DNA from: Candidatus Dojkabacteria bacterium
GTDB taxonomy: Bacteria; Patescibacteriota; Dojkabacteria; J137
DNA length: 64,000 bases
Direction: 5' to 3'
Assembly (NCBI GenBank): GCA_030950485.1
Contig: JAUZRK010000003.1
Location: forward strand, 20,228 to 84,227
Positions within the stretch are counted from its first letter, which is position 1. Each line of letters opens with the position of its first letter. The translations under genes were made by a program, and so were the position numbers. This document shows, one piece after another, positions 13,812 through 40,953 of the stretch. The notes below the pieces were generated by a model, which ran no database searches, was not told where the DNA came from, and saw only the letters and a program-made list of their open reading frames with translations.

Positions 13812-14666
13812 TCAAGAATTAACATATTCTCCCTTCACATAGCTGCCTAATATTTTTAGCTTCTCGACATAACTAGACAACTCTTTTAATGCATTATTAA
13901 GTGCTTCATCAGCCATACCTGCTGCAACATCCACATAAAACCTATACTCCCAGTCTGTTCCTATAACAGGCCTACTTTCTATTTTAGTTAGAGATAAATC
14001 TCTATCAGCAAAAGCTCTAAGAGTCTTATATAATGAACCCGCTTCTGACCCTAGAGTAAATTGAAAAGTAGTCTTGTAACCATTATCTTCATTATTGACT
14101 ATTCTTTTTATTTCTCCTTCATCTTCTGGTCTACTAATCACATAAAATCGAGTATAATTTTTTGGGTTCTCATGAATGTTGTCTTCAAGTATCTCAAGAT
14201 TGTAAACTTTTGCCGCCATCTTACTAGCGCAGCCTGCTGATGTAATCATATTATTTTCAGCTACCATCTTTACTGAGCCTGCAGTATCTTCATGCTCATG
14301 AAATTTGATTTCTGGATGAGCCAGTTCAAATGGTTTTATTTGACCTCTTGCTACAGGGTGTACATAAATATCAGTTATGTCTTTAAGAAGTTTCCCTTTA
14401 TGGCCAATCAAATGAAAGTTAACTTTAACGTAAACTTCTCCAACCAATGAAACTGAGTAATTAGTAATATTGTCATAATTTTGATAAATAGATCCATATG
14501 TTGAGTTTTCAATTGGCACAACAGTAACGTCAGCAAGCCCTGATTTCAAATCTTCAAATACCTCTCTAAACGAACCTCGTTGAAGAAGATCAATTTCAGA
14601 TCCAAAGACTTGATCCGCAGCAATGTGCGAATAAGATGCTAAATTCCCTTGTATAGATACTTTCAT
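13812..14666 (-). CDS. pheA: Prephenate dehydratase (PDT + ACT domains), paralog 1; TGA stop
   Basis: PDT catalytic domain (VVPIENSTYGSI...) plus a C-terminal ACT domain with ESRP motif (LTKIESRPVIGTDWEYRFYVDV). Confidence 0.8.
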   Translation of the reverse strand: MKVSIQGNLASYSHIAADQVFGSEIDLLQRGSFREVFEDLKSGLADVTVVPIENSTYGSIYQNYDNITNYSVSLVGEVYVKVNFHLIGHKGKLLKDITDIYVHPVARGQIKPFELAHPEIKFHEHEDTAGSVKMVAENNMITSAGCASKMAAKVYNLEILEDNIHENPKNYTRFYVISRPEDEGEIKRIVNNEDNGYKTTFQFTLGSEAGSLYKTLRAFADRDLSLTKIESRPVIGTDWEYRFYVDVAAGMADEALNNALKELSSYVEKLKILGSYVKGEYVNS

Positions 14667-15838
14667 AATATTTCTGATAATTTTTTAATACCTTCATCTA
14701 TGCTCTTTAAATCAGGACTAGAAAAATTTAGTCTTAATTTATTCTTCCCATCTAATTTATTGGGAGTAAATAAAGTTCCTGGCACAAATGATACACCATT
14801 ATTAATTGCTTTTTTATAAATTAGATCAGAATCTATATCGTTCTCTCCTTGTAACCAAATAAACATACCCCCTTCAGGTTCTGCGTAACTATAACTCTCA
14901 GGTAAGTATTTATTCAAAGCTTCGACCATTATATCCTTTCTCACTTTATATATTGAGCTCATCTTTTTAACATTAGTATAGAATCTTTCATTGTCTAATA
15001 TTTCTACAACCACATTTTGAGCTAATACATTTGCATGAACATCAACTGAAAATCTCATTGCGTTTATTTGATCTATCAATTCAAACGGACCTGTATAAAA
15101 CCCTACCCTTAGTCCTGGCCCTATAGATTTAGAAAATGTTCCTAAATAAATTACGTTCTCAGCAGCTAAAGAGTATATGCTATTTATCTGCTTATCATTA
15201 AAGTTAATGTGTCCATACGGATCATCTTCAAGTACAATTAAATCATTGTATTTAATGATCTTTGCTAAAGCAGTCCTTCTTTGCTCAGACAAGGTATAAC
15301 CAGATGGATTTTGAAAAGTAGGAATCAAGTAAGTTAACTTAACATCATACTTCTCTATAAGTCTCTCATACTCACTAATTATTATCCCTTCAGAGTCCAT
15401 AGGTATAGGTACTATCTGTGCTTTACAACTTTGCATTGACTGTAAGGCTGCAAGAAAAGTACACTCTTCTACAAGCACAACATCCCCTTCATCTAAAAAA
15501 GCTTTACAAACTGTATCGATAGTTACTTGACTACCTGAAGAAATGCCTACACTTCTAGAATCAATCTCCAAATTTTGTGTTCTCTTTAAAAACCTTGCAA
15601 CGGCTTCTCTAAGTTGTGGAATCCCATTACTAAAACTATAGTTCATTAGTGATAAATCATTTTTTCCTAGAACCTTATCTACTGACTCTTTAAATAGTTC
15701 ATAATCAAGAGACTCTGCCGCTGGATGACCAGCTGCTAGTGAAATAAGATTGTCTACACCAAAGGTGCTTAAGCTATCACGAACAATCTTAGAGTCCATC
15801 AACCTATTTCTTTCTGATAACTTTTTAATATAATTCAT
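14663..15838 (-). CDS. Class I/II PLP-dependent aminotransferase (likely aromatic/prephenate aminotransferase from context)
   Basis: Fold-type I aminotransferase with the PLP-lysine block TFSKSIGPGLRVGF; start/stop overlap with the flanking pheA-like genes. Confidence 0.7.
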   Translation of the reverse strand: MNYIKKLSERNRLMDSKIVRDSLSTFGVDNLISLAAGHPAAESLDYELFKESVDKVLGKNDLSLMNYSFSNGIPQLREAVARFLKRTQNLEIDSRSVGISSGSQVTIDTVCKAFLDEGDVVLVEECTFLAALQSMQSCKAQIVPIPMDSEGIIISEYERLIEKYDVKLTYLIPTFQNPSGYTLSEQRRTALAKIIKYNDLIVLEDDPYGHINFNDKQINSIYSLAAENVIYLGTFSKSIGPGLRVGFYTGPFELIDQINAMRFSVDVHANVLAQNVVVEILDNERFYTNVKKMSSIYKVRKDIMVEALNKYLPESYSYAEPEGGMFIWLQGENDIDSDLIYKKAINNGVSFVPGTLFTPNKLDGKNKLRLNFSSPDLKSIDEGIKKLSEIL

Positions 15839-15847
15839 ATGTATTTT

Positions 15848-16678
15848 CTACTTATTTAATTTATTTCTATATCTTCCTATAATTGAATATTCTATTGTAC
15901 ATTTATCTAATATTGTTTTCAAACCTATCTCAGTTGATGAATCTACAAGCATGTCTATCCAAAAAGCATATTCCCAATTTGTATCTGGGATTGGCCTTGA
16001 TTCAATCTTTGTTAGCGATATGCCTATACCTCCGATACTAGTCAAAAGATTCGCTAGTGATCCAGCAGAGTGCGATACTCTATATATAACGGATATTTTC
16101 TTATAGTCTTTAGCTGACTCCTCAACTTCAAATACATTATTACTAACAAATATAAATCTTGTAACATTATTAGAGTAGTTGCCTATATTTTCTATAAGAA
16201 TTTTTAAGCCTTTTTTCTTTGCAAGCTCAGCTGAACCAATACAAGCTTTAGTCTTATCTTTTAACTTCAGAATATCCTCAGCACCCGCAGCAGTACTTTT
16301 AGATTCGTTAACTCCATACCCTCTTTCATTAATCATTTCAGAACACTGAGCTATAGCTTTGGGATGAGAATATACTTCTTTAATATCTTTGATCTCGGCG
16401 CCTTCTAAAACTATGAGATTTAAAACTATATCCATATTTGCTTCGCCTACTATCCTAAGCTCTTTCTTGAACATAAAATCTATATTTACATGTACTGTAG
16501 AAGTAATTGAATTCTCGATCGGTAAAACTCCAATGGTATTAGAATTAGTTATACACCTCTTTACAATTTCGTTAAAATTGTCTGATGGTTCTAAATTATA
16601 ATCGTTAGAATCAAAACATTTAGAAGAAATAATTCCAGAATAACTTTGTTTTGGTCCTAAATAATATACTGTTTTCAT
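15848..16678 (-). CDS. Prephenate (or arogenate) dehydratase, paralog 2 (PDT + ACT)
   Basis: PDT domain (IGVLPIENSITSTV) and ACT domain (LTKIESRPIPDTNWEYAFWIDM); clearly a paralog of the 13812-14666 gene. Confidence 0.75.
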   Translation of the reverse strand: MKTVYYLGPKQSYSGIISSKCFDSNDYNLEPSDNFNEIVKRCITNSNTIGVLPIENSITSTVHVNIDFMFKKELRIVGEANMDIVLNLIVLEGAEIKDIKEVYSHPKAIAQCSEMINERGYGVNESKSTAAGAEDILKLKDKTKACIGSAELAKKKGLKILIENIGNYSNNVTRFIFVSNNVFEVEESAKDYKKISVIYRVSHSAGSLANLLTSIGGIGISLTKIESRPIPDTNWEYAFWIDMLVDSSTEIGLKTILDKCTIEYSIIGRYRNKLNK

Positions 16679-17439
16679 TCTTCTTTAAGTCTTAATTGTT
16701 TGTTAGATATTTGAGACATAGTCTCTTCTATTGACATCTTTATTTTGTCAAACTGTTTACTACAGAATGGATTAAAGTTATACATATCCTCAGTAATCTC
16801 CATATCAGCACCGATCCTTTCTACAAAATCGTGCATTCTTGATGCTGATACTGTGTCAATTTCAGTCCTCTTCATACTCAATGTTTTAAGCACATGAGAA
16901 ATAGTTAGAGTAGTAAAGTGAAATTCTGAGGCTAGTTCATCATGTCTTTCTGCTGAGATTTCTACAATTTTGTTTTTTAGCTTAATAAATATATCCTTTA
17001 CTATATTGTAAATCTCCTCACTTGCGTTAATATTTTCAATCACAATATTAAAACCCTCTACAGAATTATTATTATGTTTATAAGACTCTGGCCCATACAT
17101 TGGATGGGTACAAATTTTCATTACTTCTACCGGAAGCTCTTTAATCATAATTTTTTTGGGATAAGATTTAATAGAACAAACATCTATAAATATTGAATCA
17201 TTATCTATATACTTTGCTACTTCCCTAGTAACTTTTTCAAATGCTTTTATTGGCACTGATGGAATGACAATGTCGCATTTACAAGCATCTTCAAAATCAA
17301 AAAAGTCTTTGTTATCAATTTTCTTTGACCTTGAAGAAAATTTAATTTGGACATCTACAATTACATCTTCAAACATTGTTTTTAATAGTTTCGAAAACTT
17401 TCCATATCCTATTATCCCTATTGTTTTAATTTCCTTCAT
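16675..17439 (-). CDS. tyrA: Prephenate/arogenate dehydrogenase
   Basis: N-terminal Rossmann GxGxxG (IGIIGYGKFS) and the TyrA catalytic block (CTHPMYGPES). Confidence 0.7.
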   Translation of the reverse strand: MKEIKTIGIIGYGKFSKLLKTMFEDVIVDVQIKFSSRSKKIDNKDFFDFEDACKCDIVIPSVPIKAFEKVTREVAKYIDNDSIFIDVCSIKSYPKKIMIKELPVEVMKICTHPMYGPESYKHNNNSVEGFNIVIENINASEEIYNIVKDIFIKLKNKIVEISAERHDELASEFHFTTLTISHVLKTLSMKRTEIDTVSASRMHDFVERIGADMEITEDMYNFNPFCSKQFDKIKMSIEETMSQISNKQLRLKEE

Positions 17440-17707
17440 CTTCTCTAGTTTTTAAAATAAAGTCATGAATTGTGTTCATTAAATCTGAGATTAACTCTTT
17501 GTCAACTCCAACTTTTGCAGCTAGATCTTTTTTCGACTTCAAAACCTCTTCCCATCTTCCTGGAGCATGAGATGGCATACCAGCATCCTGCTTTGTATCC
17601 CAAGCTCTAGAAGCCGCATTTAATCTTTCTGCAACCCAACAAACGGACATATTATCTAATAGATCTATTGAGTCTCTTAATTGTTTTAGTTTTTCTTCTT
17701 GTGTCAT
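17426..17707 (-). CDS. Chorismate mutase, AroQ class (monofunctional)
   Basis: 93-aa helical protein with the AroQ pattern LKQLRDSIDLLDNMSVCWVAERLNAASRAW... Confidence 0.7.
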   Translation of the reverse strand: MTQEEKLKQLRDSIDLLDNMSVCWVAERLNAASRAWDTKQDAGMPSHAPGRWEEVLKSKKDLAAKVGVDKELISDLMNTIHDFILKTREDEGN

Positions 17708-17735
17708 ATTATTTAATAATTAATAAGTTATATAA

Positions 17736-18092
17736 TTAAAATTCTATTCCCCCTTTTATATTCTCAGTGTTATTTCTTATTAGGAAGAGTCTCTTTAAAA
17801 ACTCAACTATCCCTAAATCTTCATTACTCCAATAATAAATCATTGCCCACAGATTGCCCTTATTTGCTGCTATTTCTGCTGAATCCCACTCTCGACCTTT
17901 TGTATCCATATTAAATTTTGCTTTCAGACTTCCAACTATCCTATTCAACATACCTCTCAAACCTTCTACAGCTGGTCTCTCAGAGGAAGCAATAGCATAT
18001 GTTGCCATATTAGCGTTTGGTATATCAGTTCTTGATTCCTCTAAGTCTGTCAAAGGATCTTTACCCGTATATCTTATATTTGGGTCATTCAT
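17736..18092 (-). CDS. Hypothetical protein (118 aa) inside the aromatic-branch operon
   Basis: ORF tightly packed between chorismate mutase and the upstream micro-ORF (3-nt spacing); no recognisable motif. Confidence 0.5.
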   Translation of the reverse strand: MNDPNIRYTGKDPLTDLEESRTDIPNANMATYAIASSERPAVEGLRGMLNRIVGSLKAKFNMDTKGREWDSAEIAANKGNLWAMIYYWSNEDLGIVEFLKRLFLIRNNTENIKGGIEF

Positions 18093-18094
18093 AA

Positions 18095-18229
18095 TTACTC
18101 TTCTCTCCCATACGTCTTTTCTGCTAAATAAGTAGCTCCATCTTCACCTTGCTTAAGCCTTCTACCTGTACCCATTATTAGGTCAACTCCACCCCTACAA
18201 ATATCGGGGAGTGATGATAGTGATGTCAT
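18095..18229 (-). CDS. Micro-ORF, 44 codons (MTSLSSLPDICRGGVDLIMGTGRRLKQGEDGATYLAEKTYGREE); coding status uncertain
   Basis: ATG 21 nt after the stop of the 450-aa gene; its TAA stop lies 2 nt before the ATG of the 118-aa gene. The packing suggests translational coupling. Confidence 0.25.
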   Translation of the reverse strand: MTSLSSLPDICRGGVDLIMGTGRRLKQGEDGATYLAEKTYGREE

Positions 18230-18250
18230 ATTTTTTATTATTGAGTCATA

Positions 18251-19603
18251 TTAATTAACAAGCATTTGGATCAATTCATTGTCTTTATCTAAATCTAGAT
18301 TATGAGCCATTGTAGCCAGTTCCAAAAGTTGATCTGCAGTTAATCTTAAATTTCCTACCCATGCTCTGCCATTTACAAACTGAGTCGAAACAGTTCTAAT
18401 AACTCCCCCCATTCTAATATGAGCTGATAGAAGACCGTATCTGAGCTTTTCAATTTCGCCATTATCCATTTTTATATATATTTCATCTGGTATTACAGCT
18501 TCTTCAATTACGAATCCTCTAAAGTCGGGGTTTTTACTATATTCATCTATAATCAGTTTACTAATTGCTTCAACCTTAGAATTAATATCACCGAACTCCC
18601 ACATAAAAACCTCTACACCATCTCCGTCTGTCCCAAGCCTTCTTTTTAAAACTACATCTGCAACATTATGCTTTTTATGCATTATTCTCAATGTTCCTCT
18701 AATATATAGATTTAATTCCTCAATAGTCATATCACTATCTAGTTCAAGGCAAAACCCTAAACCAAGAGCAAGATCTTCAGGGTTACCACCTGCCGCAGAA
18801 ACTCTTTGATATATTTCGGACTTAGTTTTATCTGGCAGGTTATTTGAATACATTATTTCTTCAGCAGTTTTACTAGATATATCATTTATCTCTTCCCTGA
18901 GGAGTTTAGGATATAAATTTCCCTTATCTATTAATTTAGCCGACTCTGGACCATTAGCCATTACAAACAGTGGAACTCCAACTTCTTGACTTAAGTAAGA
19001 TATAATTATTTTCATTTCAAGATCAAGGTGATACAGATCAATAGCAATATTTTCCTTTCCAAGCTCTTCTATTAAAGTGGCTATCACTTGAGAACCTTGA
19101 GTTTTTAAATTATCTTTATGATCTCTCATAGCCAGTAAAATACTGTGAGAAGTGTAATACATTTCTTCATTACCTATTTTTAATTGTATTCCCTTGTATT
19201 GATCTCCATCTGCTCTAGGGTACCCTTCTCTCCCAGAAAGAACGGTAATGTCACCCTCAGCCTTAGACATGTAGGTTCTCTGAGTACAGACTGAATTAAT
19301 ATCTATTCCCATTTTAGTTGCAACATCGATTTCATGATGATTCATGTCCCTTGTCCCTGAGGCTATAGATAAAGTCCTCCTAGGTGAAATACCAGCTAAA
19401 TGACTATCTATATTTCTTCTACTTAAAGGTATCATTGCTTGCTGACTTAAATGTATATCTAAACTATTCATTAATTCTTCTCCAAGTAATTCCTCACCTA
19501 TTGCCTCTACTCCGCTGTTTGTCAAAACTATTAAGCTACCTCCTTCTTCGCCAAAGGAGAGTCTATCGTATTCTTCTCCAATTTGTAAATTTTCTATAGC
19601 CAT
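18251..19603 (-). CDS. Hypothetical protein (450 aa), GC-richer than its surroundings; function unknown
   Basis: Long ORF with GGG/CCC-rich codons unlike the neighbouring genes; no motif I can assign with confidence (an ATP-grasp ligase is a loose guess only). Confidence 0.55.
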   Translation of the reverse strand: MAIENLQIGEEYDRLSFGEEGGSLIVLTNSGVEAIGEELLGEELMNSLDIHLSQQAMIPLSRRNIDSHLAGISPRRTLSIASGTRDMNHHEIDVATKMGIDINSVCTQRTYMSKAEGDITVLSGREGYPRADGDQYKGIQLKIGNEEMYYTSHSILLAMRDHKDNLKTQGSQVIATLIEELGKENIAIDLYHLDLEMKIIISYLSQEVGVPLFVMANGPESAKLIDKGNLYPKLLREEINDISSKTAEEIMYSNNLPDKTKSEIYQRVSAAGGNPEDLALGLGFCLELDSDMTIEELNLYIRGTLRIMHKKHNVADVVLKRRLGTDGDGVEVFMWEFGDINSKVEAISKLIIDEYSKNPDFRGFVIEEAVIPDEIYIKMDNGEIEKLRYGLLSAHIRMGGVIRTVSTQFVNGRAWVGNLRLTADQLLELATMAHNLDLDKDNELIQMLVN

Positions 19604-19623
19604 AAAAATATATATTATAAAGA

Positions 19624-19660
19624 TAAAAAAAATCCCCTTTCGGGGATTTATATGTTTTTC
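19624..19660 (-). terminator. Rho-independent terminator (bidirectional shape) after the DAHP synthase gene
   Basis: aaaaaaaa-aatcccc-tttc-ggggatt-tatatgttttt; on the minus-strand RNA the hairpin is followed by a U8 tract. Confidence 0.7.
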
Positions 19661-19837
19661 TACTAGATATGCAAAAACAACCCCTAATTAGGATTTCCAA
19701 AAAAGTAAAAGAAAAAATAGTTTTGGTTTGTTTTTGTTTTATTATTCACGAACTGATGATAACAGAAAGTTTAAATATTTAAAATATTTTTCACTAATAT
19801 TTACAGATAGTCTTATGTACTGCCTTATAGATATAGC

Positions 19838-20742
19838 TTATAAGTCTCTATTCTTCGATATATCAACGACTAGTTTTTTAAGCTCACTGATAGAAATATG
19901 CTGCCCAGTATCTGTTTTAGATGTACCAACTTCTATTAAAATCCCATCATATAAAAATCCGCTTTCATTCAACTTCATATTAGCTGCATCAATCGTAGCA
20001 TCTAAAATACTGTCTCTCATTCTTGGACCATAGGCATGGCTTGGGTCAAAGTACAACTTACAACCGGTTCTCTTTTTTACTCTAGCTGCATGATTATGCA
20101 TAGGATAATTTCTATAGTCAGCTTTTTCTGGAATATCAAATCCTCTATGAATCAATACCGTGTGATTCTTATTATCAGAGTAACTAAGCCTTCCCAAGCA
20201 CTCTCAATAGGAGTTTTTAACTCAGAATTTTTATAATTATCTGCAACTTCAATATGTTCACCAACCCATTTCCCATTTTTTAATCCAACTACCCATTCAT
20301 TTTCTTTTGCAACAGCACTCATTTGCATTACTTGCCAGCCTAGTTGATTTACAGAAGGGTTCCAAATCATAACTTTTTGCTTTGGTAATTCTCTTGAGAG
20401 AACAGGTAACTGTACTATTGGCATCATTATTTCTGTAGCAATATTCAAACCTGTCTTTTTAATTATTTCTTTTGCAATTTCTATACTTGGTGGAATTTGA
20501 AAATCTTTAATATTCCCTCCCTTTGGTAGAAGTTGGAAATTGTACATTAAAGTTTCGTAATCCATTCCCATTCCCTCTCCTGACTTATCTAAAACTGTTC
20601 TAGATTTAAGACCTACAATTCTTGTTCCTGTAATTGCCATTTTGCCATTAATCTCTATCTTTGCAATTTCTAAAATCTCCTTTTTATTATTATCTATAGA
20701 ACATGGTCCCGCATAAATTGAGAACTTTTTATTTTTAATCAT
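19838..20742 (-). pseudogene. 3-deoxy-7-phosphoheptulonate (DAHP) synthase, class I-beta/KDO8PS-like, split by a frameshift near 20165-20175
   Basis: Two overlapping ORFs (196 aa + 119 aa). Together they carry GPCSI, KSRT...GxG, EIM, GLKNG, ...LIHRG and CKLYFDPSHAYG (DPSH) motifs in DAHPS order. The junction ..ESAWEG/LSYSDNK is explained by a 1-nt deletion in a G-rich run. A sequencing error cannot be excluded. Confidence 0.6.
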
Positions 20743-20931: not shown

Positions 20932-21171
20932 ATGGATCATTCAGTAATAAAAGATCTCCTTTGGAGAGCTCTAACAGATACATCTTTTAGAGAAATTTTA
21001 GTTAGTGATTTTGAATCAGCAGTTAAGGATCATGAGTTATCTGATGAGGATAAAGCTTTACTAAAAAAAGTAGTTAACGATAAACCAGGTCAAATCGACG
21101 ATCTTGGAAGTTATCTTTCTCAAGTTCTAAGCGAAAGAGATAACAAAGGGTTCATTATGGCTGGTGGGTGA
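20932..21171 (+). CDS. Nif11/NHLP-leader-like small protein (79 aa) ending in Gly-Gly immediately before a TGA stop
   Basis: MDHSVIKDLLWRALTDTSFREILVSDFESAVKDHELSDEDKALLKKV resembles the helical Nif11/NHLP leader (LIAKAW.D..F...LL..P..AL...GV.LS.EE). The ORF terminates ...GFIMAGG-TGA with no core peptide. Confidence 0.5.
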   Translation: MDHSVIKDLLWRALTDTSFREILVSDFESAVKDHELSDEDKALLKKVVNDKPGQIDDLGSYLSQVLSERDNKGFIMAGG

Positions 21172-21179
21172 TTAATCTA

Positions 21180-24100
21180 CTATAATTCCAAGAAATCCTC
21201 AGTTTTTGGTCGTATTAATTTATTAAATACAATCTTAAAAAGCTGAGGATTTTCTATCTTTATTCCGTCTATATCTTTTATAGAATCTATAAATTCATCG
21301 TATGATGATATATTAGCTTTAATTTTTATCTTTTCTTCCCCCATATTTATTTCGAATACAGCAAATGTTTTGTCACCTTCATTTATATCTACTATTCCAT
21401 TATTTATATCTATAAACTCACCCAAGATAAATCTTACTTTTGACATGTCATACCTATGAAACGCCGAAGTAACAGCGAGCTGTGGAGAAAGCGCAAATAC
21501 TCTATCAAGCTGATCTAATAGCCTGTCGATATCTCCAGGAACCATTTCTAATGGTAAAGACTTTATTAAATTCATATATAAATTAGCTTTGGTCTCCTTA
21601 TTTCCTGGAATTCTATGAATAAATTCAGGGTAAAGAAAAAGCATACTTGCTAAGTTTGATGAAACATTAGCAACTCTCTGTCTCATAGATTCATCTTCTG
21701 ATTGACCTAGCATTGATAAGACTTGTAATAAGTTAGTAAGGGCATTTAACCTTACTTTAGAAAATTCCATGACGATAACTTCAGGCAAAAGTCTAATCAT
21801 GTCAGAATAGATATCCGAGATTTCAACTCCCGCATAAAATGCTACTACTGGTTGATTAGTAATCAGTTGAGCTTTAGATCTTGCTGGTATCAAAGTACTC
21901 TTAATCAATATATCTAATTTCTCAGGTGCTGTTTTAGCTTCTACCAGTTGTTGTAAAAGATCAACATTCTTAGGCCTTTTAAACATAGGTTCGTATTTTT
22001 GTTTAATTAAATCTATAACCCTACCTTCTTGTTCAACATCTCCATACATAGTGTAAAGAGAAGCTAATGTAATGCCAAAAGCTCTTAGGTCCTTAGCGTT
22101 AATTATTTCGTCTACAGATTGCTCTAAAAACTGAAGCGCTGTTGCATCTTTTTCTCCCTCTTCTTTTAATGCTTTATATGAATCATATAATAATATAGCC
22201 TTAATCCTTGGATTAGTTTTGCATAACTCATAAAACTTTTCTTCAGACTCACTCATTGATTGCTTAAGTCTCAAAGGCATTAGCTTATATTGGTAGCTTA
22301 CTGCTAATCGACCTATAACTTCAGCAGAATTCTCGTCAATTTCACCAGCATAATTGGCAATAGTATTAATTAATTTAATTAGCCTTTGACTATTAGAGAC
22401 TTCAATCCAAGATCCATCAACAGTTTCATTTAATTCTTTCCATTCAGTGTACAAACTAGCCTTAAATACCAAATCTGGGTTATCCAAAGCATTTAAATCA
22501 ACTCTATCTATAAAATTGAATGTAGATTCACCATTTACAAATGCCTTTTCTGCAAGATCTAAAAAAATCATTGAACTTTCAGCTTTTAGGTTAATATATT
22601 CTTCATTCGCCTCTAGGCGTCTAAACTGATCAGCCGTATTATCTAGAAATTGTGCATACACTAAATTATCACCATTAAAAAGAGAAACGTCATTTTCTTT
22701 TACATCTATTGGTGAAACTTCTAGTGTCCCTTGATAAAATTCGTTAGGAAGAATTCTTATACTCCCATCTGCTTCTTCAAATCTTCTAATCGCCTCGATA
22801 CTTTCCAAATAATCTAATTGAGCTCCTAATGTTTCATTTGAATCTACTTCTAAAATCCTACTAAGTGTGTTTAACTTTATACCTAATTGAAAACCTCCGT
22901 AAGCAGCTTCTAGTACTTTTACTCTTATTTCATCCTGTTTCGTAAATTGTTTGTCTCTAAGTTGATTATAAAGAATCTGAATATAGGTAGAATTGCCATC
23001 TCTAATAGAAGCATTATTATATCCGTATTCCTGTCTTCCATGCATTGCTTCTAATTTTGCGAGATATATACTAGCCTCCGACCATCTTTCATTTTCAATA
23101 AAAAGCGTAAGAGTTCTATCAAAATACATTCTAGGTAAGTGATGTATGTGTGATTCAAGAAACTCTTGTGCATTTATAAATTCTCGTTTAGCTTCAAAAT
23201 CAACATCAACTAAGAAAATGTGATAATTTCCTTCTGTTCTGAAGTGAGACACATCACCATCAATTCCTAAATTGTCATTAATGCTACAAGCTATTCTAAT
23301 TCCTGGTTCTCCTCCAGCCTTGATCATATGTCCTGCGGCTCCCCCTAAAGCATTTACATGAATATTAAATTGTGGCGAATTATAGAATCGAAAAGGTATA
23401 GCATTATCAACTGCTGCGGTTATTCTATAGTTTTCATCTAGACGATTATCATGGAGAACCCTAAGTACTTTAGAGATCTCTGCAGTTTGAGCCTCCAGAA
23501 TAATAAAACCATCTGCTCTAACTTTAACATCGTAGCCTAGTAATCTTGCTTTAGACACAGCCTCTAAAATACTCTGCCTGAATTCTTCATCATAATCATC
23601 TCCATTAACATTTCCAATAAAAATAATACTCTGTCCCGCATCTACCTTATCAGCTATTACAATTTCCTGAGTAGCAGTTTTTATATTTTGAACTATCGTA
23701 GTTTTCCAGCTATCTTCAATACTACCTGCTCGAACTTTTAATTCCTGCTTATTTTGCCATATGGATTTAGCACCTACTTTTAAGTGCACATGTGTATCAT
23801 TATGTGCTTTTAATGATTTCAAATTCTTATCTACTTCTTTACTTCTAGTTTCACAGATAATCCCTACTTTATCAGGAGTATTTACATTTCCTATAGCATT
23901 AAAAGTTGTAGTTAATGAATCGCCCTCGGTTGTCCATCTTAGGTCATCTAATATACCAGGATTTAAAGCTATAAGAATGTCATCTAGATGTTCTACGTAG
24001 CCTAAAATCTCTTCCTCACTTCCATAGAAATGAATCCAAGGACTATCTCCCATTACGTCTACTATTACTGCTTTAGCAGCGCATACTTGCCCAGATCTAT

Positions 24101-24527
24101 TTAATTTATCTATAACCATTCCCAAATTACCAAAAGAGCTTCGATATAAGTTTATACCTCTCTCTACTTGTTTCTTACTAAAACCAACTCCATCAATTTC
24201 CCTCATAGCTTGAGGTCTAACATTTTCAGCTAGACTTCTCGCAGCATGTAGATCCCCATCGCTTTGATAATATACGAGAGTTAAATATATTCTTTCTGGA
24301 GAATAACCGTTGCTAGAACAAAAAGCTAATAAGTTATCAATGTCTAGTATAGCCACTTCAGAACCTTCACCAAATGCTCTAGAAAACAAATCAGGATTTT
24401 GCTCATGTATTTCATTAATTGCAGCTAGTGGATCTAACCTAAAATTGTCTAATACCTCTGTCTCAAACTTCCCATTTTCAGACGTTTCACTATAAAGCAG
24501 ATCTTCAGCATCTCTTTTATCTGACAT
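21180..24527 (-). CDS. Large hypothetical protein (1115 aa), no recognisable domain
   Basis: Uninterrupted ORF; no Walker motif, no HExxH, no Cys clusters. Convergent with the NHLP-like gene (8-bp gap) and divergent from the M50 protease gene. Confidence 0.6.
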   Translation of the reverse strand: MSDKRDAEDLLYSETSENGKFETEVLDNFRLDPLAAINEIHEQNPDLFSRAFGEGSEVAILDIDNLLAFCSSNGYSPERIYLTLVYYQSDGDLHAARSLAENVRPQAMREIDGVGFSKKQVERGINLYRSSFGNLGMVIDKLNRSGQVCAAKAVIVDVMGDSPWIHFYGSEEEILGYVEHLDDILIALNPGILDDLRWTTEGDSLTTTFNAIGNVNTPDKVGIICETRSKEVDKNLKSLKAHNDTHVHLKVGAKSIWQNKQELKVRAGSIEDSWKTTIVQNIKTATQEIVIADKVDAGQSIIFIGNVNGDDYDEEFRQSILEAVSKARLLGYDVKVRADGFIILEAQTAEISKVLRVLHDNRLDENYRITAAVDNAIPFRFYNSPQFNIHVNALGGAAGHMIKAGGEPGIRIACSINDNLGIDGDVSHFRTEGNYHIFLVDVDFEAKREFINAQEFLESHIHHLPRMYFDRTLTLFIENERWSEASIYLAKLEAMHGRQEYGYNNASIRDGNSTYIQILYNQLRDKQFTKQDEIRVKVLEAAYGGFQLGIKLNTLSRILEVDSNETLGAQLDYLESIEAIRRFEEADGSIRILPNEFYQGTLEVSPIDVKENDVSLFNGDNLVYAQFLDNTADQFRRLEANEEYINLKAESSMIFLDLAEKAFVNGESTFNFIDRVDLNALDNPDLVFKASLYTEWKELNETVDGSWIEVSNSQRLIKLINTIANYAGEIDENSAEVIGRLAVSYQYKLMPLRLKQSMSESEEKFYELCKTNPRIKAILLYDSYKALKEEGEKDATALQFLEQSVDEIINAKDLRAFGITLASLYTMYGDVEQEGRVIDLIKQKYEPMFKRPKNVDLLQQLVEAKTAPEKLDILIKSTLIPARSKAQLITNQPVVAFYAGVEISDIYSDMIRLLPEVIVMEFSKVRLNALTNLLQVLSMLGQSEDESMRQRVANVSSNLASMLFLYPEFIHRIPGNKETKANLYMNLIKSLPLEMVPGDIDRLLDQLDRVFALSPQLAVTSAFHRYDMSKVRFILGEFIDINNGIVDINEGDKTFAVFEINMGEEKIKIKANISSYDEFIDSIKDIDGIKIENPQLFKIVFNKLIRPKTEDFLEL

Positions 24528-28012: not shown

Positions 28013-28735
28013 TTAGACTTCGACTAATTCACCTTCTTCTAGTGTTACCACTCTGTCCGGTCCTATATTCTCAGAAAAATATCTATCGTGTGAAATTAAA
28101 ATCATAGCGCCTTTAAATTCTCTAAGTGCTTCTTCAATTACCTCTTTTGTTTTAATATCTAAATGATTAGTTGGCTCATCAAGAATTAAACAATCGTACT
28201 CATGGTAAGTAAAGATTGCGAATGAAAGCCTTGCTCTCTGTCCAGGACTTAATTTACCAATTTTTTGAGACCTTAAATCTTTATCAAAAAGAAATTTTTC
28301 TAATTGTCCGAAAGAACTACTGAAAGAAACATTAGCTTCTCTCATAAAATACTCATCAACTCTCATTTCCATCGGAAGATGTTCTTGATTTTGAGAAAAG
28401 TATTTCCATTTAAGGTTTTCTCCCCATTTTATAGCTCCCTCTACTGGCTTTAGTTCATTAACTAAAAGCTTTATAAAAGTAGATTTACCAGTACCATTAG
28501 GTCCGACTAACCAAATTTTCTCATTTCCATAAATCTCTAGATCTACACCATTAATCAATGGTGTCTTCTCCTCCCCTTGAGGGAAGGCTGGGAGGGGTGA
28601 TGCTCCCCAATCAAAGACTAAGTCATTAACTTCTAAAACTCTCTTAGTTCTACGAACTTCACCTTCAACAGAAATACTTCCTATAAGCTCTTCTTTATAT
28701 GTGCCAATTTCATTTCTACTTACTTCTCTTTTCAT
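28013..28735 (-). CDS. ABC-F family ATPase, C-terminal half (ABC2 domain)
   Basis: Walker A GPNGTGKST, signature LSPGQRARLSFA, Walker B LILDEPTNHLD, H-loop ISHDRYF; ATGA start/stop overlap with the N-terminal half. Confidence 0.75.
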   Translation of the reverse strand: MKREVSRNEIGTYKEELIGSISVEGEVRRTKRVLEVNDLVFDWGASPLPAFPQGEEKTPLINGVDLEIYGNEKIWLVGPNGTGKSTFIKLLVNELKPVEGAIKWGENLKWKYFSQNQEHLPMEMRVDEYFMREANVSFSSSFGQLEKFLFDKDLRSQKIGKLSPGQRARLSFAIFTYHEYDCLILDEPTNHLDIKTKEVIEEALREFKGAMILISHDRYFSENIGPDRVVTLEEGELVEV

Positions 28736-29499
28736 TCTTGTTTTGCAGCTCTTACAGCCTTACCTCTTTGCTTAGCATCTTTAAGTTTTCTACTATTTTC
28801 TAAAAGTTTTTCTAACTGCTCTCTCTTTTTTTCTTGAGCTTTAAATAATCTTGCTCTCTCTTCAATATAATAATCTTTCGCTTCAAGAAACTTATCATAG
28901 TTTCCATCCCAGATTCTTAATGTCTGCTCGTCAATTTCAAAAATTTTATTTGTAAGTGAATTTAAAAACATCCTATCGTGTGAGATCATAATAATGATTC
29001 CATCGAAGTCCTTTAGAAAGCCTTCAAGCCAAATGATTCCATTAATATCTAAGTGATTAGTTGGTTCATCAATTAGTAAAACTGTCGGTTCTTTTATTAA
29101 AACTTTTGCAAGATATAATTTCATTTTCTGCCCCGGACTAAGTGTTTTTACTTCATCAAACTCATCCACATCAAGTTCAAGTTTTGCCAATAATCGATCG
29201 ACTTTCCACATATCGGTATAGTGATTCGCTACTAGTGATTCTAAAAACTCTCCTACAAATGTAAGCTTCTCAAAACTTAGGTCTAACTCTTGAGGTAAAT
29301 ATCCAATTTTCTCTTCTTTAGTCAGGCTTACATGCCCTTTATCTGGATCTTCTAACCCTGCTAAAATTTTCATCAAGCTAGTTTTACCGCATCCATTCAG
29401 ACCAACAAGACCTACTCTTTCTTTATTTCCAAGTATGAAATTAACGCCAGTAAAAAGTAGTTTTTTATATTCAATTTGTAAATTCTCAGCTTTTATCAT
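28732..29499 (-). CDS. ABC-F family ATPase, N-terminal half (ABC1 domain + linker)
   Basis: Walker A GLNGCGKTS, signature LSPGQKMKLYLAK, Walker B LLIDEPTNHLD, H-loop ISHDR, then a charged helical linker (ARLFKAQEKKREQLEKLL..). Ends ..CAAGAATGA, overlapping the next ATG. Confidence 0.75.
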   Translation of the reverse strand: MIKAENLQIEYKKLLFTGVNFILGNKERVGLVGLNGCGKTSLMKILAGLEDPDKGHVSLTKEEKIGYLPQELDLSFEKLTFVGEFLESLVANHYTDMWKVDRLLAKLELDVDEFDEVKTLSPGQKMKLYLAKVLIKEPTVLLIDEPTNHLDINGIIWLEGFLKDFDGIIIMISHDRMFLNSLTNKIFEIDEQTLRIWDGNYDKFLEAKDYYIEERARLFKAQEKKREQLEKLLENSRKLKDAKQRGKAVRAAKQE

Positions 29500-29777: not shown

Positions 29778-30618
29778 ATGAAATATAAAATTACTGCTTT
29801 AGCTGAAAATACAACTTTTAGACATAATGCTCTAGCTCAGCATGGTCAATCTATATTAATTGAAGCTGGAGATGAATATAAAATGCTATTTGATGTCGGA
29901 GAGATTCCGGGTGCTATTGAACATAATATGAAACAATTAAAAGTAGAATTAAATGATATTAATGACGTAGTAATTTCTCATAGACATATTGGTGCACTTA
30001 CAAACATGGTAAGTAATTTAAATGATCAGAGAGTATATTTACCGACGCAGCTTGGTGAAGAAGATATTAGAAATCATCCTGAAAAATATAATTTCCTACC
30101 TAAGAATCCAGACGGAGGATATGACTTAGCAAATATCTAAGGAGGATGCTTTACTTTTAAATGAGAAGCTTAATACTGTAGCTGTAGATAAAGAAGGTTT
30201 TGAAATTTCTCATAATATATATACTTCTGAAATTGCAGGTGATTGGATGGAAGAGCAAGCTATTGTTATCGATCAAAAAGAATTAGGAATAATTGTCATA
30301 GTAGGTTGCTCACATCCAACCTTAGAAGTTATGGTTGAAAAAGCAAAGATTACTACTGGAAATAATAAGGTAAGAGGAATAATAGGAGGTTTTCATCTTG
30401 CAGATAAAACAGAAGACGAGATCATTGAGTCTGCTAATAAATTCAAATCCTTTGGAATTGAGTTTATGGCTCCAGGTCACTGTACAACAGTTGGAGGATG
30501 TCAGATTTTAGAGAAAACCCTAGGAAGTGAAATCGTAAGATTATCTAAAACTGGAACATTTGCTACTGGTAATAATATAGAAATTAATGGCAGTGAGATT
30601 TTATTTAATTTTGTTTAA
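29778..30618 (+). pseudogene. COG1237-type MBL-fold metallo-hydrolase, split by a frameshift (ORFs 29778-30140 and 30247-30618 in different frames)
   Basis: N-terminal part has the beta-lactamase-fold His block (VISHRHIG). C-terminal part has GCSHP...GGFHL...PGHCT motifs typical of this family. Together they reconstitute one ~280-aa protein. Confidence 0.5.
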
Positions 30619-32440: not shown

Positions 32441-34123
32441 TTACTGTATTTTCATTCCCCAGACCATCTGCCTTGAAACAATAAGTGTAGGTACGACTTT
32501 TTCAAATTGTCTATCATACAGACCTACTCTATCTTCAAGAGAAGTTCTATAATTTGGATCTGCACTATAGCCACCAGTATAATGAAGTCCAACACCATAA
32601 CCCTGACCATGAATATAACTTTCAGATAACCCTCTATTTCCATCCTCAAGTTGAATGAATGAAATTTCTTCTCCAAGATAGTCCTGAATATAGTATATAA
32701 GTTTGTTGTAAACCATTCCTAAAGTTTGAGGTCCATCATATGTAGTTGCCATAAACTTTCTACCAGATTTGGTCTGAACCTTAATATTCCAAGTACCTGG
32801 CATTTCGCCTGCTGCGAATCTCGCATCTTCCTGACTTATACCTAGATCTGCAACATAATCAACTAACCATTGTGGCCATTCACTACTATTATATCTGAAT
32901 ATTTGTCGATTTAAATGAGCTATATGTTCGGAATTATTAGGATTGAAAGTTTTCTCACTTCGAACTATATCAATTTGAGTAAATGAAGTAGCATCTCCCT
33001 TGTTAAATTGTCTGTCTAATCTATTTATTAATTCATTTACAATTCTTAATGTAGTACCATCAACAAACTCAAGTCTTTCATCTATAATTATTGATCCGCC
33101 AGAAAAAAACATTCCCATCCTCTCTCGATCAACTACAAGACGCTCTCCCTCGCTATTTAAAAACAGAGAAATATTTATATTAGATCTGATAATCTCTCCT
33201 AATTCGGTGCTATTAGTTAAATGAATTACATTAATAAACTTTGATACTGCAGATATTGATTCTGAATAGTCATTTGCAATATAGTAAGGACTTTCTAAAT
33301 TTAGGAGTAAGCTATTATATTCGCTCTCAGTAAAACCATCTAAGTTGTTAAATATTAAAACTCTATTCAAAAGATCAATATTTATATGATATTCGTTTAT
33401 ACTTAGATTCATACTACCTGCAAAATCCTGTCTTTGGTCTTCAGGTGAATAATTTGATGTTAAATTTGATATTCCTACTCCTGGAAAATCAGCATTTTCA
33501 TAAACCGGAACTGATCCAACTAGTGTACTTTCTTCAGCCCCATAATATCTCGTCTTACTAAAGTTCTTTGGTACAAATAAAGTTGGAACATCATTTTCTC
33601 CGTTCATTTGGCTCCAATTACTTGGAACGTATGTATAGCTCTGGGGATACGGCAAAGTCATTATTTGAGAAAAGCCTGAGTATTCATATAAAATATGCTG
33701 TCCTTGATTTAGGAATAATTGAGATATTTGTTCAATTTCGTTAACGAAAAAGCAAAAAGCTTCTACACCTGGTTTAATCTCAAAAACACCTAGACTACCA
33801 TCAGGATTCACGACAAGACCTTCATTAAAAGTTCGCGGATAAGGGCCTGTGATCTTAACTTCCTTAAATTCACCAAAAGGATCTATTGAAGGATGTGAAT
33901 CAGCTACTGCAATAACCTCTATTCCATCACTAGCTTCAACCTTAGCCCCGCCTAATGATAAATAAGTCGCAAGACCTCCTATAGCTGCGCCAGTCCCTAA
34001 AGCAAGACACCCACGCCTATTCATCATGTATAAATCAGGATATATTGGCTTCCCAGTATCGGTAAGTAGACTCTCTCCTACAATGACTTTATGGCCAGTT
34101 TGATTATCAGTAAATTCATCCAT
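32441..34123 (-). CDS. Hypothetical secreted protein with Tat-like signal (true start probably MMNRRGCLALG...)
   Basis: Twin-arginine-like NRRGCLALGTGAAIGGLATYLS ~34 codons into the ORF; the remainder has no recognisable motif. Confidence 0.5.
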   Translation of the reverse strand: MDEFTDNQTGHKVIVGESLLTDTGKPIYPDLYMMNRRGCLALGTGAAIGGLATYLSLGGAKVEASDGIEVIAVADSHPSIDPFGEFKEVKITGPYPRTFNEGLVVNPDGSLGVFEIKPGVEAFCFFVNEIEQISQLFLNQGQHILYEYSGFSQIMTLPYPQSYTYVPSNWSQMNGENDVPTLFVPKNFSKTRYYGAEESTLVGSVPVYENADFPGVGISNLTSNYSPEDQRQDFAGSMNLSINEYHINIDLLNRVLIFNNLDGFTESEYNSLLLNLESPYYIANDYSESISAVSKFINVIHLTNSTELGEIIRSNINISLFLNSEGERLVVDRERMGMFFSGGSIIIDERLEFVDGTTLRIVNELINRLDRQFNKGDATSFTQIDIVRSEKTFNPNNSEHIAHLNRQIFRYNSSEWPQWLVDYVADLGISQEDARFAAGEMPGTWNIKVQTKSGRKFMATTYDGPQTLGMVYNKLIYYIQDYLGEEISFIQLEDGNRGLSESYIHGQGYGVGLHYTGGYSADPNYRTSLEDRVGLYDRQFEKVVPTLIVSRQMVWGMKIQ

Positions 34124-38298: not shown

Positions 38299-38346
38299 AA
38301 AAAAATAATACAGTTAAAAGAATAATTAATCTACAGAAATAGAAAA

Positions 38347-40136
38347 TTAAATTATTGATTTCGCAGCTGAGAAAATTGCATAAGGTACTCTAGCTGGAGA
38401 AATGCTTATGCTGTCGACTTTAGCTTTATTTACTAAAAAGTCTATAGAATCATTCTCTGAAGTCTGTTCTCCACAAACACTAATATGGATACTAGGATTT
38501 GCTTTTCTCGCCTTTTTGACTACATCTAATATTAATTGCCTACTCCCTCAATATCTAATGATACAAATGGATTCTTAGAAATTATTCTTTTTTCTTTATA
38601 AAAGTCTAAGAAGTTAGCAGTATCATCTCTAGATAACCCAAAGGTTGTCTATGTAAGATCATTAGTACCAAAACTAATAAAATCAACCTCTTTTGCTATT
38701 TCACTCGCTAATATTGCAGCACGTGGAGTTTCAACCATTGCTCCAAATCTAAATTTATCAAGCTCAATGTACTTATTTACTTCAACTTTAAATAATCTAA
38801 GTTCAGCAGTATCTGAAATTAATGGTGCCTCTATTACAATCTTAGGAGTTTTAATTTTATTCTTTTGTAATTTTGATATGGCCTTATTTATAGCTTTAGT
38901 TTGAATCTCTATAATTTCTGGTCTTTTTAATAACATTCTTATTCCTCTAAATCCTAACATAGGATTTTGCTCGTGCATGAATTCAATCTTAGATTTAAGA
39001 GAATTTACAGAAATACCTAATTTTTTTGATAATAATTTAACCTCGCTTTCGCCTTTTGGTATGAATTCATGTAAAGGTGCGTCTAAGAATCTTACTACAA
39101 CATCTTTACCCTCAAGCAGTTTAAAGATTGAATAGAAGTCCTTAGATTGACTACTTATTATTCGCTCCTTTAGTTCTTTAGAAGTTTCTTCACTAAAGAT
39201 AAGTTCCCTAATTAAATTTGCATTATCTCCCGTAAACATATGCTCCGTTCTTAACAAACCTATTCCTTCAGCCCTATATTGCAGTGCTGTTTTAATTTGA
39301 TCGCTTGTATCTGAATTTGATAAGACTTTAATAGTTTTATTTTTAACGGAAATATCAATAAATCTAGAAATAAATTTCTTATCTATTGCACTTGTTAATT
39401 TTGCCTTTCCTAAATATATTGTAGAAAGAGAGGTATCTATTGTTATAGTTTCTCCCTCGTATTTTTTAATAGATTCAAAATCTACATTTGTAAGAGTAGG
39501 TACTCCGAGTCCTTTAGCAACTACGGCAGCGTGTGATGTTATTCCTGCGGAGTTTAGTAGTAATCCCTTAACTTTACCAAAAACTTTAAGATCTTCAGCG
39601 GATACTTCCTTTAAAAACCAAATTGCATCTTGTTTCTGCTTTAATAAGCTAAGTGTATTTTCTTTACTTGTTGATAGAATCCCACTTACTGCACCTGTTG
39701 ATATTTCATCTGCTGTAGTTATTTTTTTAAGTTCTTTTGCATTAGAAATTTTTTTAACAAAGAAATCTTTATATATATCTAGTGTTGTTAGGTTTAATAA
39801 GTCTGTTTCAGTTATTAGCTTACTATCTAAATATTCAAAATATGTATTTCCGAATTCTTTCGTAGATAATTTTGCTTTCTTCTTGATTATTATTTTATAT
39901 TCTAAATTCTTGAAATTTATTAATATTAAAAATTCAATAAGAGATTTTTCTTTATACTCTTCTTCCTTTAGTAGTCCAACAATTATATTTTTAAGCTCAG
40001 TAGGAATAGAATTAAAGCTATATACTTTATCATCATTAAACGACAGTAGATTTGCTCTAGGTTCAACTTTACCCGTAAGTGTATCTCGAGAGAAAACTGA
40101 TCCGAAGTGTGTATAATCTATGTTATTTTTCGTCAT
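38347..40136 (-). pseudogene. PEP-utilising enzyme (pyruvate phosphate dikinase-like His + TIM-barrel domains) lacking the N-terminal nucleotide-binding domain; in-frame TAG plus a 1-nt frameshift in the C-terminal region
   Basis: Phospho-His domain GITSHAAVVAKGLGVPTLTNV, PEP-binding GLLRTEHMF and FISFGTNDLT-TAG-TTFGLSRDD (Gln codon replaced by amber). The reading frame shifts after ..DIEGVG, then continues ..SVCGEQTSE...ISPARVPYAIFSAAKSII. The N-terminal ~180 aa are unrelated to the PPDK ATP-grasp domain. Confidence 0.6.
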
Positions 40137-40197: not shown

Positions 40198-40953
40198 ATG
40201 ATCAAACCAACAGAAAAAAAAGGGACTTTTATGAGCTTTCTTGATCAAAGAGGGCTAACTGAAAAAGGAGGTAGAGAACAAAGACTTTCAGAGATAACTG
40301 AAAAAATTAGAAATACATCAAAACTAGTACTAAAGGAGTTAAATGCTTATTTCTTAAATGATCCCTCAACTGTAGTTAGTAGTAATAATTTTAATAAGAT
40401 TGATGAGATATTAGATCAGACAATAGATATATGGGAGAAATTTAACTTTCCATTCCAAGATATGGTCTATATAAGAACTGCTTGGTTTAATAAAACTATA
40501 CAATTCAATTTCCCTTTCCAGACTTTCAAAAGAGATAAAAATGTACTAAAAGAAATAAAATCTTTTTTAGATGAAAATAATCCAGATCAAATAATAATTC
40601 ATCCAAGAGTATCGGATGAATATGCTTTAGGTAATTTAACTGGTATAAGAGCGCAAAGTGAAATAGAAGAAATCAACGTTGAAATCGCAAAAGATGGAAT
40701 TACTCACATTAGAGAAATGGAAAATAAAGCAAAGTATTATACATCTGGAAAAGTATCGGAATTATTAGACTCTACTGACAAATACCTTCATAGCTTCTTA
40801 AAGATATTGAGTTTCACTACAAAAGCAGGTGACTATTACTTACGAGATATCACAAAAGATGCACATCTTTCTCCTATTTATGAAATAAAAGGATTTAAAA
40901 TAAATGGAGAAACATTTCTAATCCTATTTGATTACGAGACAGAGCTAAGTTAG
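40198..40953 (+). CDS. Hypothetical protein (251 aa)
   Basis: ORF only; no recognisable motif. Confidence 0.45.
   Translation: MIKPTEKKGTFMSFLDQRGLTEKGGREQRLSEITEKIRNTSKLVLKELNAYFLNDPSTVVSSNNFNKIDEILDQTIDIWEKFNFPFQDMVYIRTAWFNKTIQFNFPFQTFKRDKNVLKEIKSFLDENNPDQIIIHPRVSDEYALGNLTGIRAQSEIEEINVEIAKDGITHIREMENKAKYYTSGKVSELLDSTDKYLHSFLKILSFTTKAGDYYLRDITKDAHLSPIYEIKGFKINGETFLILFDYETELS

Follow-up and report, generated by a model that had tools for sequence, protein, structure and literature searches.

The cluster described here occupies positions 13812-20742 of a 64,000-nucleotide stretch of contig JAUZRK010000003.1 (assembly GCA_030950485.1) from Candidatus Dojkabacteria bacterium, the whole of which was analysed and is called the window below (GC content ~31%). 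All genes of the cluster are on the minus strand and immediately precede the tuf-S10 ribosomal cluster, and the nine open reading frames (ORFs) that the original prediction had listed are present: a frameshifted DAHP synthase (DAHPS), three ORFs of 450, 44 and 118 aa to which no function had been given, an AroQ chorismate mutase (CM), a TyrA dehydrogenase, a prephenate dehydratase (PDT1), an aminotransferase (AT) and a second dehydratase paralogue (PDT2). The central result concerns the three ORFs without an assigned function, which to judge from their sequences are colinear fragments of one gene, cut by a TAA codon and a frameshift. Since these ORFs represent one broken gene, the region is mostly ordinary.

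The disrupted gene (17736..19603, ~620 codons) belongs to a rare family of predicted ATP-grasp ligases that has no Pfam model. The 450-aa ORF (18251-19603) is terminated by an in-frame TAA nonsense codon (18251..18253), and the 44-aa ORF (18095-18229) continues in the same frame, with the TAA and six codons between them; the 118-aa ORF (17736-18092) is in another frame. The change from the frame of the 44-aa ORF to that of the 118-aa ORF was located to a zone, 18095..18143, in which there are also ~13 residues beyond those of the homologues. In a hidden Markov model (HMM) of nine intact homologues the matches are colinear, with the 450-aa ORF at profile positions 38-417 (E 1e-43), the 44-aa ORF at 442-453, where it carries a 'GGvDlimGt' motif and is not significant alone, and the 118-aa ORF together with upstream codons at 464-558 (E 3.6e-4). 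Compared by hhalign with the family alignment, the rebuilt 172-aa C-terminus matches positions 421-558 of the 574 in the profile (E 3.2e-5), and with a broader profile of 36 sequences the 118-aa fragment ranks second after the 450-aa ORF among 718 six-frame stop-to-stop fragments of the window (E 0.16). The 44-aa and 118-aa pieces retain the near-invariant C-terminal residues of the family (G, D, D-x-N, G, P and W), except that Asp stands in place of a near-invariant Glu. At 31 further genome and metagenome loci the homologue is a single ORF, mostly of 550-660 aa, wherever its full length is on the contig. Neither the 44-aa nor the 118-aa piece had a significant BLAST match to the ligase loci. 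The earlier view of three separate genes, which might encode novel pathway enzymes or regulators, thus gives way to a single interrupted gene, as indicated by the colinear matches and the shared frame of the two upstream pieces. Of the profile searches suggested for the 450-aa and 118-aa proteins, those against Pfam and NCBIfam returned nothing, while the family HMM placed both in one gene.

The family itself is difficult to detect. Single-sequence searches with the 450-aa ORF (Pfam, NCBIfam, phmmer against the PDB and a word-indexed search of 5.8 billion proteins) matched only the query itself; a full HMMER scan of 1.84 billion representatives gave ten distant homologues of 546-887 aa with 27-33% identity, and a profile search of the word-indexed database matched only P0130 and the query. 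There was no Pfam or NCBIfam match for the ligase ORFs of the window (to E<=10) or for the 10 homologues (to E<=0.1), and no match of the family profile to PDB sequences. The closest intact homologue, P0122, was modelled with AlphaFold (predicted local distance difference test score, pLDDT, 78.9; predicted template modelling score 0.83), and the model has a three-domain alpha/beta fold with ATP-grasp nucleotide-binding domains. Its best Foldseek matches in the PDB are a Streptomyces 'ATP-grasp peptide ligase' (8ynd/8ynq), the L-propargylglycine--L-glutamate ligase BesA (8yi6) and the pheganomycin peptide ligase PGM1 (3wvq/3wvr), with RizA also among the amino-acid and peptide ligase matches and PurD, PurK, PurT and BacD lower down. 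PGM1 is described in PMC8939145, citing Noike et al. 2015, as joining a non-proteinogenic amino acid to a ribosomal peptide. On the strength of the model the family is predicted to be one of ATP-grasp amide-bond ligases, and its likeness to BesA, PGM1 and 8ynd/8ynq is in the fold, since its members are only 9-14% identical to these enzymes and ~150 residues longer. Unlike them, the copy in the window is interrupted, and its place is within an aromatic amino-acid operon. Invariant in the family are K245, K339 and E386, and D529-x-N531 is near-invariant (P0122 numbering); the equivalents in the window, K227, K320 and E367 of the 450-aa ORF and 'NDPN' of the 118-aa ORF, are the putative counterparts of the ATP- and Mg-binding residues of ATP-grasp enzymes (central-domain Lys, hinge Glu and acidic-x-Asn of the C-domain), assigned by order and motif alone.

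The family has ~50 members (10 cluster representatives, 18 genome loci and 13 metagenome loci, with possible overlap) and is distributed sporadically, in Streptomyces, Mycobacterium, Pseudonocardia, Allorhizocola, Stigonema, Microscilla, Saprospiraceae, Deltaproteobacteria and Deferribacteres, or in broader terms in Actinomycetota, Cyanobacteria, Bacteroidota and others. Typical contexts are small amino-acid-derived biosynthetic clusters, in which the neighbouring genes include a DAO-type FAD oxidoreductase (seven loci), Peptidase_C26 (gamma-glutamyl-hydrolase-like), M20 peptidases, an Asp/Glu racemase, an SbnA/SbnB-like pair, haem-oxygenase-like di-iron oxidases (Pfam Haem_oxygenas_2), TauD/2-oxoglutarate oxygenases, a formyltransferase, an SDR, a methyltransferase and an EamA exporter. 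At locus L032 (1136-6436) an intact family member stands beside an SbnA-like PALP enzyme, an SbnB-like ornithine cyclodeaminase and a haem-oxygenase-like di-iron oxidase, and at L011 (5944-13151) another stands beside an aminotransferase, a flavin N-monooxygenase, TauD and a haem-oxygenase-like di-iron oxidase; both look like uncharacterised pathways for non-proteinogenic amino acids or dipeptides. None of the 33 other ligase loci contains a homologue of the CM, TyrA, PDT, AT or DAHPS of the window, so that the placement of a ligase gene among those of an aromatic operon is peculiar to this genome.

We infer that the ligase gene was acquired horizontally. The original prediction had argued for this from a visibly higher GC content of the 450-aa gene, and that argument fails, since the composition is ordinary: GC is 0.347 as compared with 0.314 +/- 0.027 for 31 background genes (range 0.259-0.399), i.e. 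+1.2 standard deviations (SD) and inside the background range, and GC at third codon positions (GC3) is 0.233 as compared with 0.181 +/- 0.038, a value that resembles the rest of the cluster. A foreign origin is better argued from the position of the gene, because it separates DAHPS from CM, direct neighbours in the other loci of the candidate phyla radiation (CPR) that have both, and because no other CPR member of the family was detected. Mobile-element boundaries at the insertion were considered and rejected, the flanking repeats being not convincing; between the CM start and the ligase stop region there is a 38-nt match of 79%, estimated to be at chance level in AT-rich DNA. The GC3 of every gene in the cluster is 0.22-0.27, ~1-2 SD over the window mean of 0.18 +/- 0.04, so that the mild rise is cluster-wide and not particular to the 450-aa ORF.

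The second interrupted gene of the cluster encodes a predicted DAH7P synthase (19838..20742). As written it consists of two ORFs, of 196 aa (20152-20742) and 119 aa (19838-20197), separated by a 1-nt deletion at ~20185-20190, and the frame break reads 'WEG|LSYS'. With one base restored near this position the merged protein has 301 aa, aligns end to end with intact homologues of ~300 aa and only just exceeds the Pfam threshold for DAHP_synth_1 (PF00793; 26.2 bits, cutoff 25.5); on NCBIfam PRK08673 it scores 15-18 bits (cutoff 335). The call of a frameshifted DAHP synthase in the original prediction stands. Homologues detected number 647, of which the best 120, with 50-58% identity, are all intact at ~300 aa except the 196-aa fragment of this same metagenome-assembled genome (MAG), and those that are named are mostly from the CPR (Dojkabacteria, Roizmanbacteria, Woesebacteria and 'Patescibacteria group').

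A structure model of the homologue P0009 (pLDDT 95.5) has type Iβ DAH7PS enzymes as its top 14 Foldseek matches in the PDB (E 1e-12 to 8e-11, 19-22% identity), and KDO8PS matches rank after these at 14-18% identity; the family profile matches the T. maritima DAH7PS chain 3pg8 at E 0.006. The GPCS and (E/H)RG...DPSH blocks align with the T. maritima enzyme. In an alignment of 11 sequences including the window protein every invariant family residue is retained, among them those for metal and PEP binding: C14 (the Cys of GPCS), K46/R48 (Lys and Arg of KxR), H236 (the His of DPSH), E271 and D278, the last two of which we take to be the Glu and Asp that come downstream in the type Iβ motif. In comparison with the type Iβ enzymes of T. 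maritima (1rzm/1vr6), P. furiosus (1zco), Listeria (3nvt) and Geobacillus (5j6f), the family has a similar TIM barrel (template modelling score 0.66-0.77), keeps the GPCS, (E/H)RG and DPSH motifs with the downstream Glu and Asp, and its gene leads aro operons. It differs from them in being barely detectable by sequence, with the low identity given above, in having KSR for KPR and HRG for ERG, in the absence of the N-terminal regulatory domain, and in that some Dojkabacteria-like contigs link it not with aro genes but with PfkB and a class-II aldolase. The model and the motifs make this a divergent, CPR-specific type Iβ DAH7PS family with predicted activity. A search of the literature on the shikimate pathway or DAHP synthase of CPR bacteria and Dojkabacteria returned nothing useful.

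The remaining five genes each span their family end to end, and Pfam agrees with the functions first assigned to them. The AroQ chorismate mutase (17426..17707, 93 aa; CM_2 44.1 bits, cutoff 27) is apparently intact and equal in length to the CM that follows DAHPS in L004, L008 and L009. The compact TyrA dehydrogenase (16675..17439, 254 aa; PDH_N 51.9 bits, cutoff 26.5) is 31% identical to the TyrA of L009, and its best PDB matches are soybean PDH1 entries (E 3.5e-20); the Asp of its 'IGAD' aligns with soybean PDH1 chain residue 222. An acidic residue at position 222 is said, after work by Schenck and co-workers from 2017, to be the mark of arogenate-specific enzymes. PDT1 (15848..16678, 276 aa; PDT 161.5 bits), a prephenate/arogenate dehydratase, is 39-41% identical to the PDT of L008 and L009 and is the orthologue of the PDT of CPR aro operons. 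The class-I AT (14663..15838, 391 aa; Aminotran_1_2 129.9 bits) has as best PDB matches PH0207/'aminotransferase II homologue' (E 1e-73), a multiple-substrate aminotransferase, LysN, KAT-II and Aro8, which places it in the subgroup of archaeal aromatic/KAT-II/LysN enzymes; it is 23% identical to the AT of L004. PDT2 (13812..14666, 284 aa; PDT 165.5 bits, ACT 27.8 bits) has an ACT domain and shares 30% identity with PDT1 and 36% with its counterpart in L010. Both PDT translations contain the TRF and ESRP motifs, and on the NCBIfam equivalog they score 213 and 185 bits, just under the cutoff of 219. The five genes encode the conversion of chorismate to prephenate, possibly arogenate, and further to Phe and Tyr. 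It had been proposed that prephenate and arogenate routes coexist here; of these, an arogenate route is plausible because of the compact, plant-like type of TyrA with its Asp, the aromatic/KAT-II-like AT and the two PDT paralogues with TRF and ESRP, the arogenate preference of TyrA being predicted only.

The nine genes are co-directional as first described, and the packing from the 450-aa ORF through PDT2 is tight, with intergenic gaps of -14 to +28 nt. This does not extend to DAHPS, which is followed by a spacer of 234 nt before the ligase gene. In this spacer is the best terminator-like hairpin of the region (19630..19649, minus strand; 8-bp stem, GAAA loop and T-run). Because of the spacer and the hairpin, DAHPS is probably a transcription unit of its own, apart from the ligase-to-PDT2 genes, and the cluster is probably not the single operon that had been assumed. 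Scans of the window for tRNA and Rfam families gave no matches.

The cluster is best understood by comparison with other CPR loci, among which the synteny check suggested earlier found the order DAHPS-CM-TyrA-PDT. In L008, L009 and L010 the DAHPS gene heads an operon DAHPS-CM-(TyrA)-PDT-aroB-aroA-aroK-aroE-aroD-aroC. The window shares with these operons (L009 is of Roizmanbacteria type) the order and the orthology of DAHPS-CM-TyrA-PDT; it differs from them in the absence of aroB-aroC, in the extra AT and PDT2, in the inserted ligase gene and in adjoining the tuf-S10 cluster. The distance between DAHPS and CM is 3-18 nt in L004, L008 and L009, compared with 2.1 kb in the window. Contig L004, which has one of the closest DAHPS homologues, reads PfkB, class-II aldolase, DAHPS, CM, AT and TyrA::PDT; in L002 (Dojkabacteria) DAHPS comes after PfkB and the aldolase and its sole aro-type neighbour is a short PDT; in L006 it follows PfkB. 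No homologue of aroB, aroA, aroK, aroE, aroD, aroC, trpE, trpB, PfkB or the aldolase was found in the 64-kb window, which bears out the local absence of the shikimate core. The observation that the first and last steps are encoded together with the middle missing thus holds locally, and is more aptly taken as what remains of the CPR aro supraoperon that reaches from DAHPS to aroB-aroC.

In the Dojkabacteria-like loci L002 (8235-11527), L004 (8246-13697) and L006 (3732-5571) the DAH7PS gene directly follows PfkB, with a class-II FBP-type aldolase in L002 and L004, and shikimate genes are absent within 10 kb in L002 and L006. The conserved linkage to PfkB and aldolase might mean that the DAH7PS family has a non-canonical role or substrate.

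Five clear lesions were found in three accessory genes, namely DAHPS, the ligase gene and a PPDK-like phosphoenolpyruvate (PEP)-utilising enzyme elsewhere in the window (38300-40136, minus strand; Pfam PEP-utilizers and PEP-utilizers_C), and ~35 kb of housekeeping genes, for ribosomal proteins, EF-Tu, SecY, primase and ribonucleotide reductase among others, show no interruption. Under random placement of the lesions, their restriction to <=3 genes would have P = 0.016, and two genes each struck >=2 times P = 0.008. Two of the five are substitutions to stop: the TAA in the ligase gene and, in the PEP-utilising enzyme, an in-frame TAG at the conserved Gln of the 'GTNDLTQ' of PPDKs ('FGTNDLT*TTFGLSRDD'). 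The latter gene also has a frameshift 3' of the TAG, the sequence reading 'DIEGVG' and then 'QLILDVVKKARKANP...CGEQ' in another frame, and its lesion pattern is like that of the ligase gene. Recoding of stop codons was considered and found unlikely because TAA, TAG and TGA all terminate genes in the window. Since the lesions are clustered in accessory genes, they are likely to be those of real pseudogenes.

A public assembly of the same MAG, GCA_030949735.1, provides a comparison. Its protein Q9M91_00605 is identical to the 450-aa protein, and the DAHPS frameshift and the ligase TAA are both present in its contig JAUZSD010000001.1. In this assembly the locus is split, JAUZSD010000001.1 ending at window position 17284 and JAUZSD010000013.1 at 18024, so that the break falls exactly within the operon; the two contigs have a mutually agreeing overlap of 741 bp, the window spans the junction, and its identity to them is 99.85-99.9%. 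Differences of the window from these contigs include those at 17828-17838, 12449, 21803, 28267 and 28426, the first being a 10-nt variant patch within the 118-aa ORF that is common to both NCBI contigs. These differences suggest a noisy consensus and/or strain heterogeneity at the ligase C-terminus.

Overall, we hold with moderate confidence that the locus is a lineage-specific, partly decayed and rearranged remnant of a CPR aromatic amino-acid operon, with an interrupted ligase gene. The ancestral operon, modelled on the sampled Microgenomates-type CPR loci, would have had the order DAH7P synthase, CM, TyrA, PDT, aroB, aroA, aroK, aroE, aroD and aroC. From this the block from aroB to aroC would have been lost, an aromatic-type AT and a second PDT paralogue would have come to stand after PDT1, and the ATP-grasp ligase gene would have been inserted, incidentally, between DAHPS and CM. 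With the TAA and the frameshift in the ligase gene and the 1-nt deletion in DAHPS both would be pseudogenes, provided that the lesions are real, and the five intact genes would continue to supply Phe and Tyr, the chorismate or prephenate being either scavenged or synthesised elsewhere. Several observations weigh against this interpretation. The matches of the 118-aa piece (E 3.6e-4 and 0.16 in the two HMMs) and of the 44-aa piece (not significant) are individually modest. The NCBI assembly differs from the window by ~20 indels and substitutions in 26 kb, including homopolymer indels, and has a frameshift in EF-Tu at window position 12449; the data or the consensus are therefore noisy, and the window may keep residual errors. 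Furthermore, DAHPS keeps all its invariant residues and the ligase fragments keep the conserved residues of their family, so that inactivation would be either very recent or an artefact.

These points lead to the alternative that the lesions are all errors of assembly or polishing, that an intact DAHPS and a 620-aa ligase are expressed, and that the ligase makes a dipeptide-like or gamma-glutamyl conjugate from the product of the CM-TyrA-PDT-AT-PDT genes (Phe, Tyr, arogenate or a derivative), i.e. a specialised metabolite in a CPR bacterium. In its favour, besides the evident errors of the NCBI contigs and the residues kept in both genes, the relatives of the ligase are in amino-acid- or dipeptide-type clusters (M20 peptidases, racemase, SbnA/B-like enzymes) and the best structural matches are to amino-acid and peptide ligases such as BesA, PGM1, BacD and RizA. 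We nevertheless consider it unlikely, if by no means negligible, since two of the lesions are nonsense substitutions and not indels, the lesions are concentrated in accessory genes, the C-terminus of the ligase has the odd insertion of ~13 residues around its frameshift, a terminator-like hairpin lies 5' of the ligase gene, and linkage of ligase and aromatic genes occurs in none of the 33 other loci. The narrower proposal, that an intact BesA/PGM1-like ligase and the organism's own Phe/Tyr enzymes make an aromatic dipeptide or gamma-glutamyl conjugate and that the lesions are consensus errors, seems to us improbable; if true, it would be a rare case of specialised-metabolite biosynthesis in a reduced CPR genome. 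The suggestion in the original prediction that the set supplies a precursor for a specialised product thus has some support from the contexts of the ligase family and is weakened by the disruption of both ligase and DAHPS and by the absence of aromatic linkage in the 33 loci. The logic of bacilysin, in which a prephenate-derived amino acid is used by the ATP-grasp L-amino-acid ligase BacD/YwfE, is a related case with differences: here there are no BacB/C/G-like genes and the ligase is disrupted, and both PDTs are full-length, with TRF, ESRP and an ACT-like C-terminus, unlike the BacA type, which is short.

It is very improbable that the locus is a chimeric join or a product of mis-binning, with the DAHPS-ligase part and the CM-to-tuf part from different organisms. 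The split of the locus in the NCBI assembly, with contig ends at 17284 and 18024, would be in line with such an origin, but the contigs agree over their overlap and do so at the variant site 17828-17838 too, the junction lies inside the window with no shift of GC or GC3 from one side to the other, and the best named DAHPS homologues are from Dojkabacteria and other CPR bacteria with the same DAHPS-CM linkage. As regards the three ORFs, their packing among pathway genes and the lack of any Pfam or NCBIfam match could be taken to mean that they are distinct genes for novel pathway enzymes or regulators. This is hardly credible, however, as they are colinear with single proteins of 550-620 aa from >40 other genomes and contigs, the 450-aa and 44-aa ORFs share one frame, and the Asp-x-Asn that is presumed to be the Mg-binding site of the ligase is in the 118-aa piece, so that the 450-aa piece alone would be without it. 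The 44-codon ORF might also be seen as a ribosomal precursor peptide for a PGM1-like peptide ligase, given that PGM1, which acts on a ribosomal peptide, is among the best structural matches and that a 42-aa ORF is also found 3' of the homologue in L011. Against this, the 44-aa ORF is in the frame of the upstream gene and has the family GGxDxxxG motif at the colinear position, and the 42-aa ORF of L011 overlaps, is different in kind and has no similarity to it that we could see; such a role is most unlikely. A partly decayed and rearranged remnant of the CPR operon, carrying one interrupted ligase gene, is thus the interpretation that we prefer.

The consequence is that three apparent orphan genes leave the list of unknowns as one broken gene, and that the aromatic operon of the CPR is rearranged, and probably eroded, in one lineage of Dojkabacteria. 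Two protein families met on the way may be worth more than the locus itself, namely the ATP-grasp ligase family without a Pfam model and the divergent CPR-wide type Iβ DAH7PS family with its predicted activity.

Some further features of the window should be mentioned. An ABC-F-type ATPase (28013-29499, minus strand) is split into two ORFs, 255 and 240 aa long, that overlap in ATGA, and is possibly disrupted. At 29778-30618 (plus strand) there are adjacent ORFs of 120 and 123 aa, without a Pfam match, that may be halves of one gene; from motifs only, we would guess that they are metallo-beta-lactamase-like. A Pfam domain is absent in three large ORFs, of 1115 aa (21180-24527, minus strand), 560 aa (32441-34123, minus strand) and 251 aa (40198-40953, plus strand). 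Between the 1115-aa gene and DAHPS sits a 79-aa ORF (20932-21171, plus strand) with a sub-threshold match to Pfam Frankia_peptide (PF14407, a family of ribosomally synthesised peptides; E 5e-4, 20.7 bits, cutoff 48), the C-terminus of which reads '...MAGG' right before a TGA stop codon.

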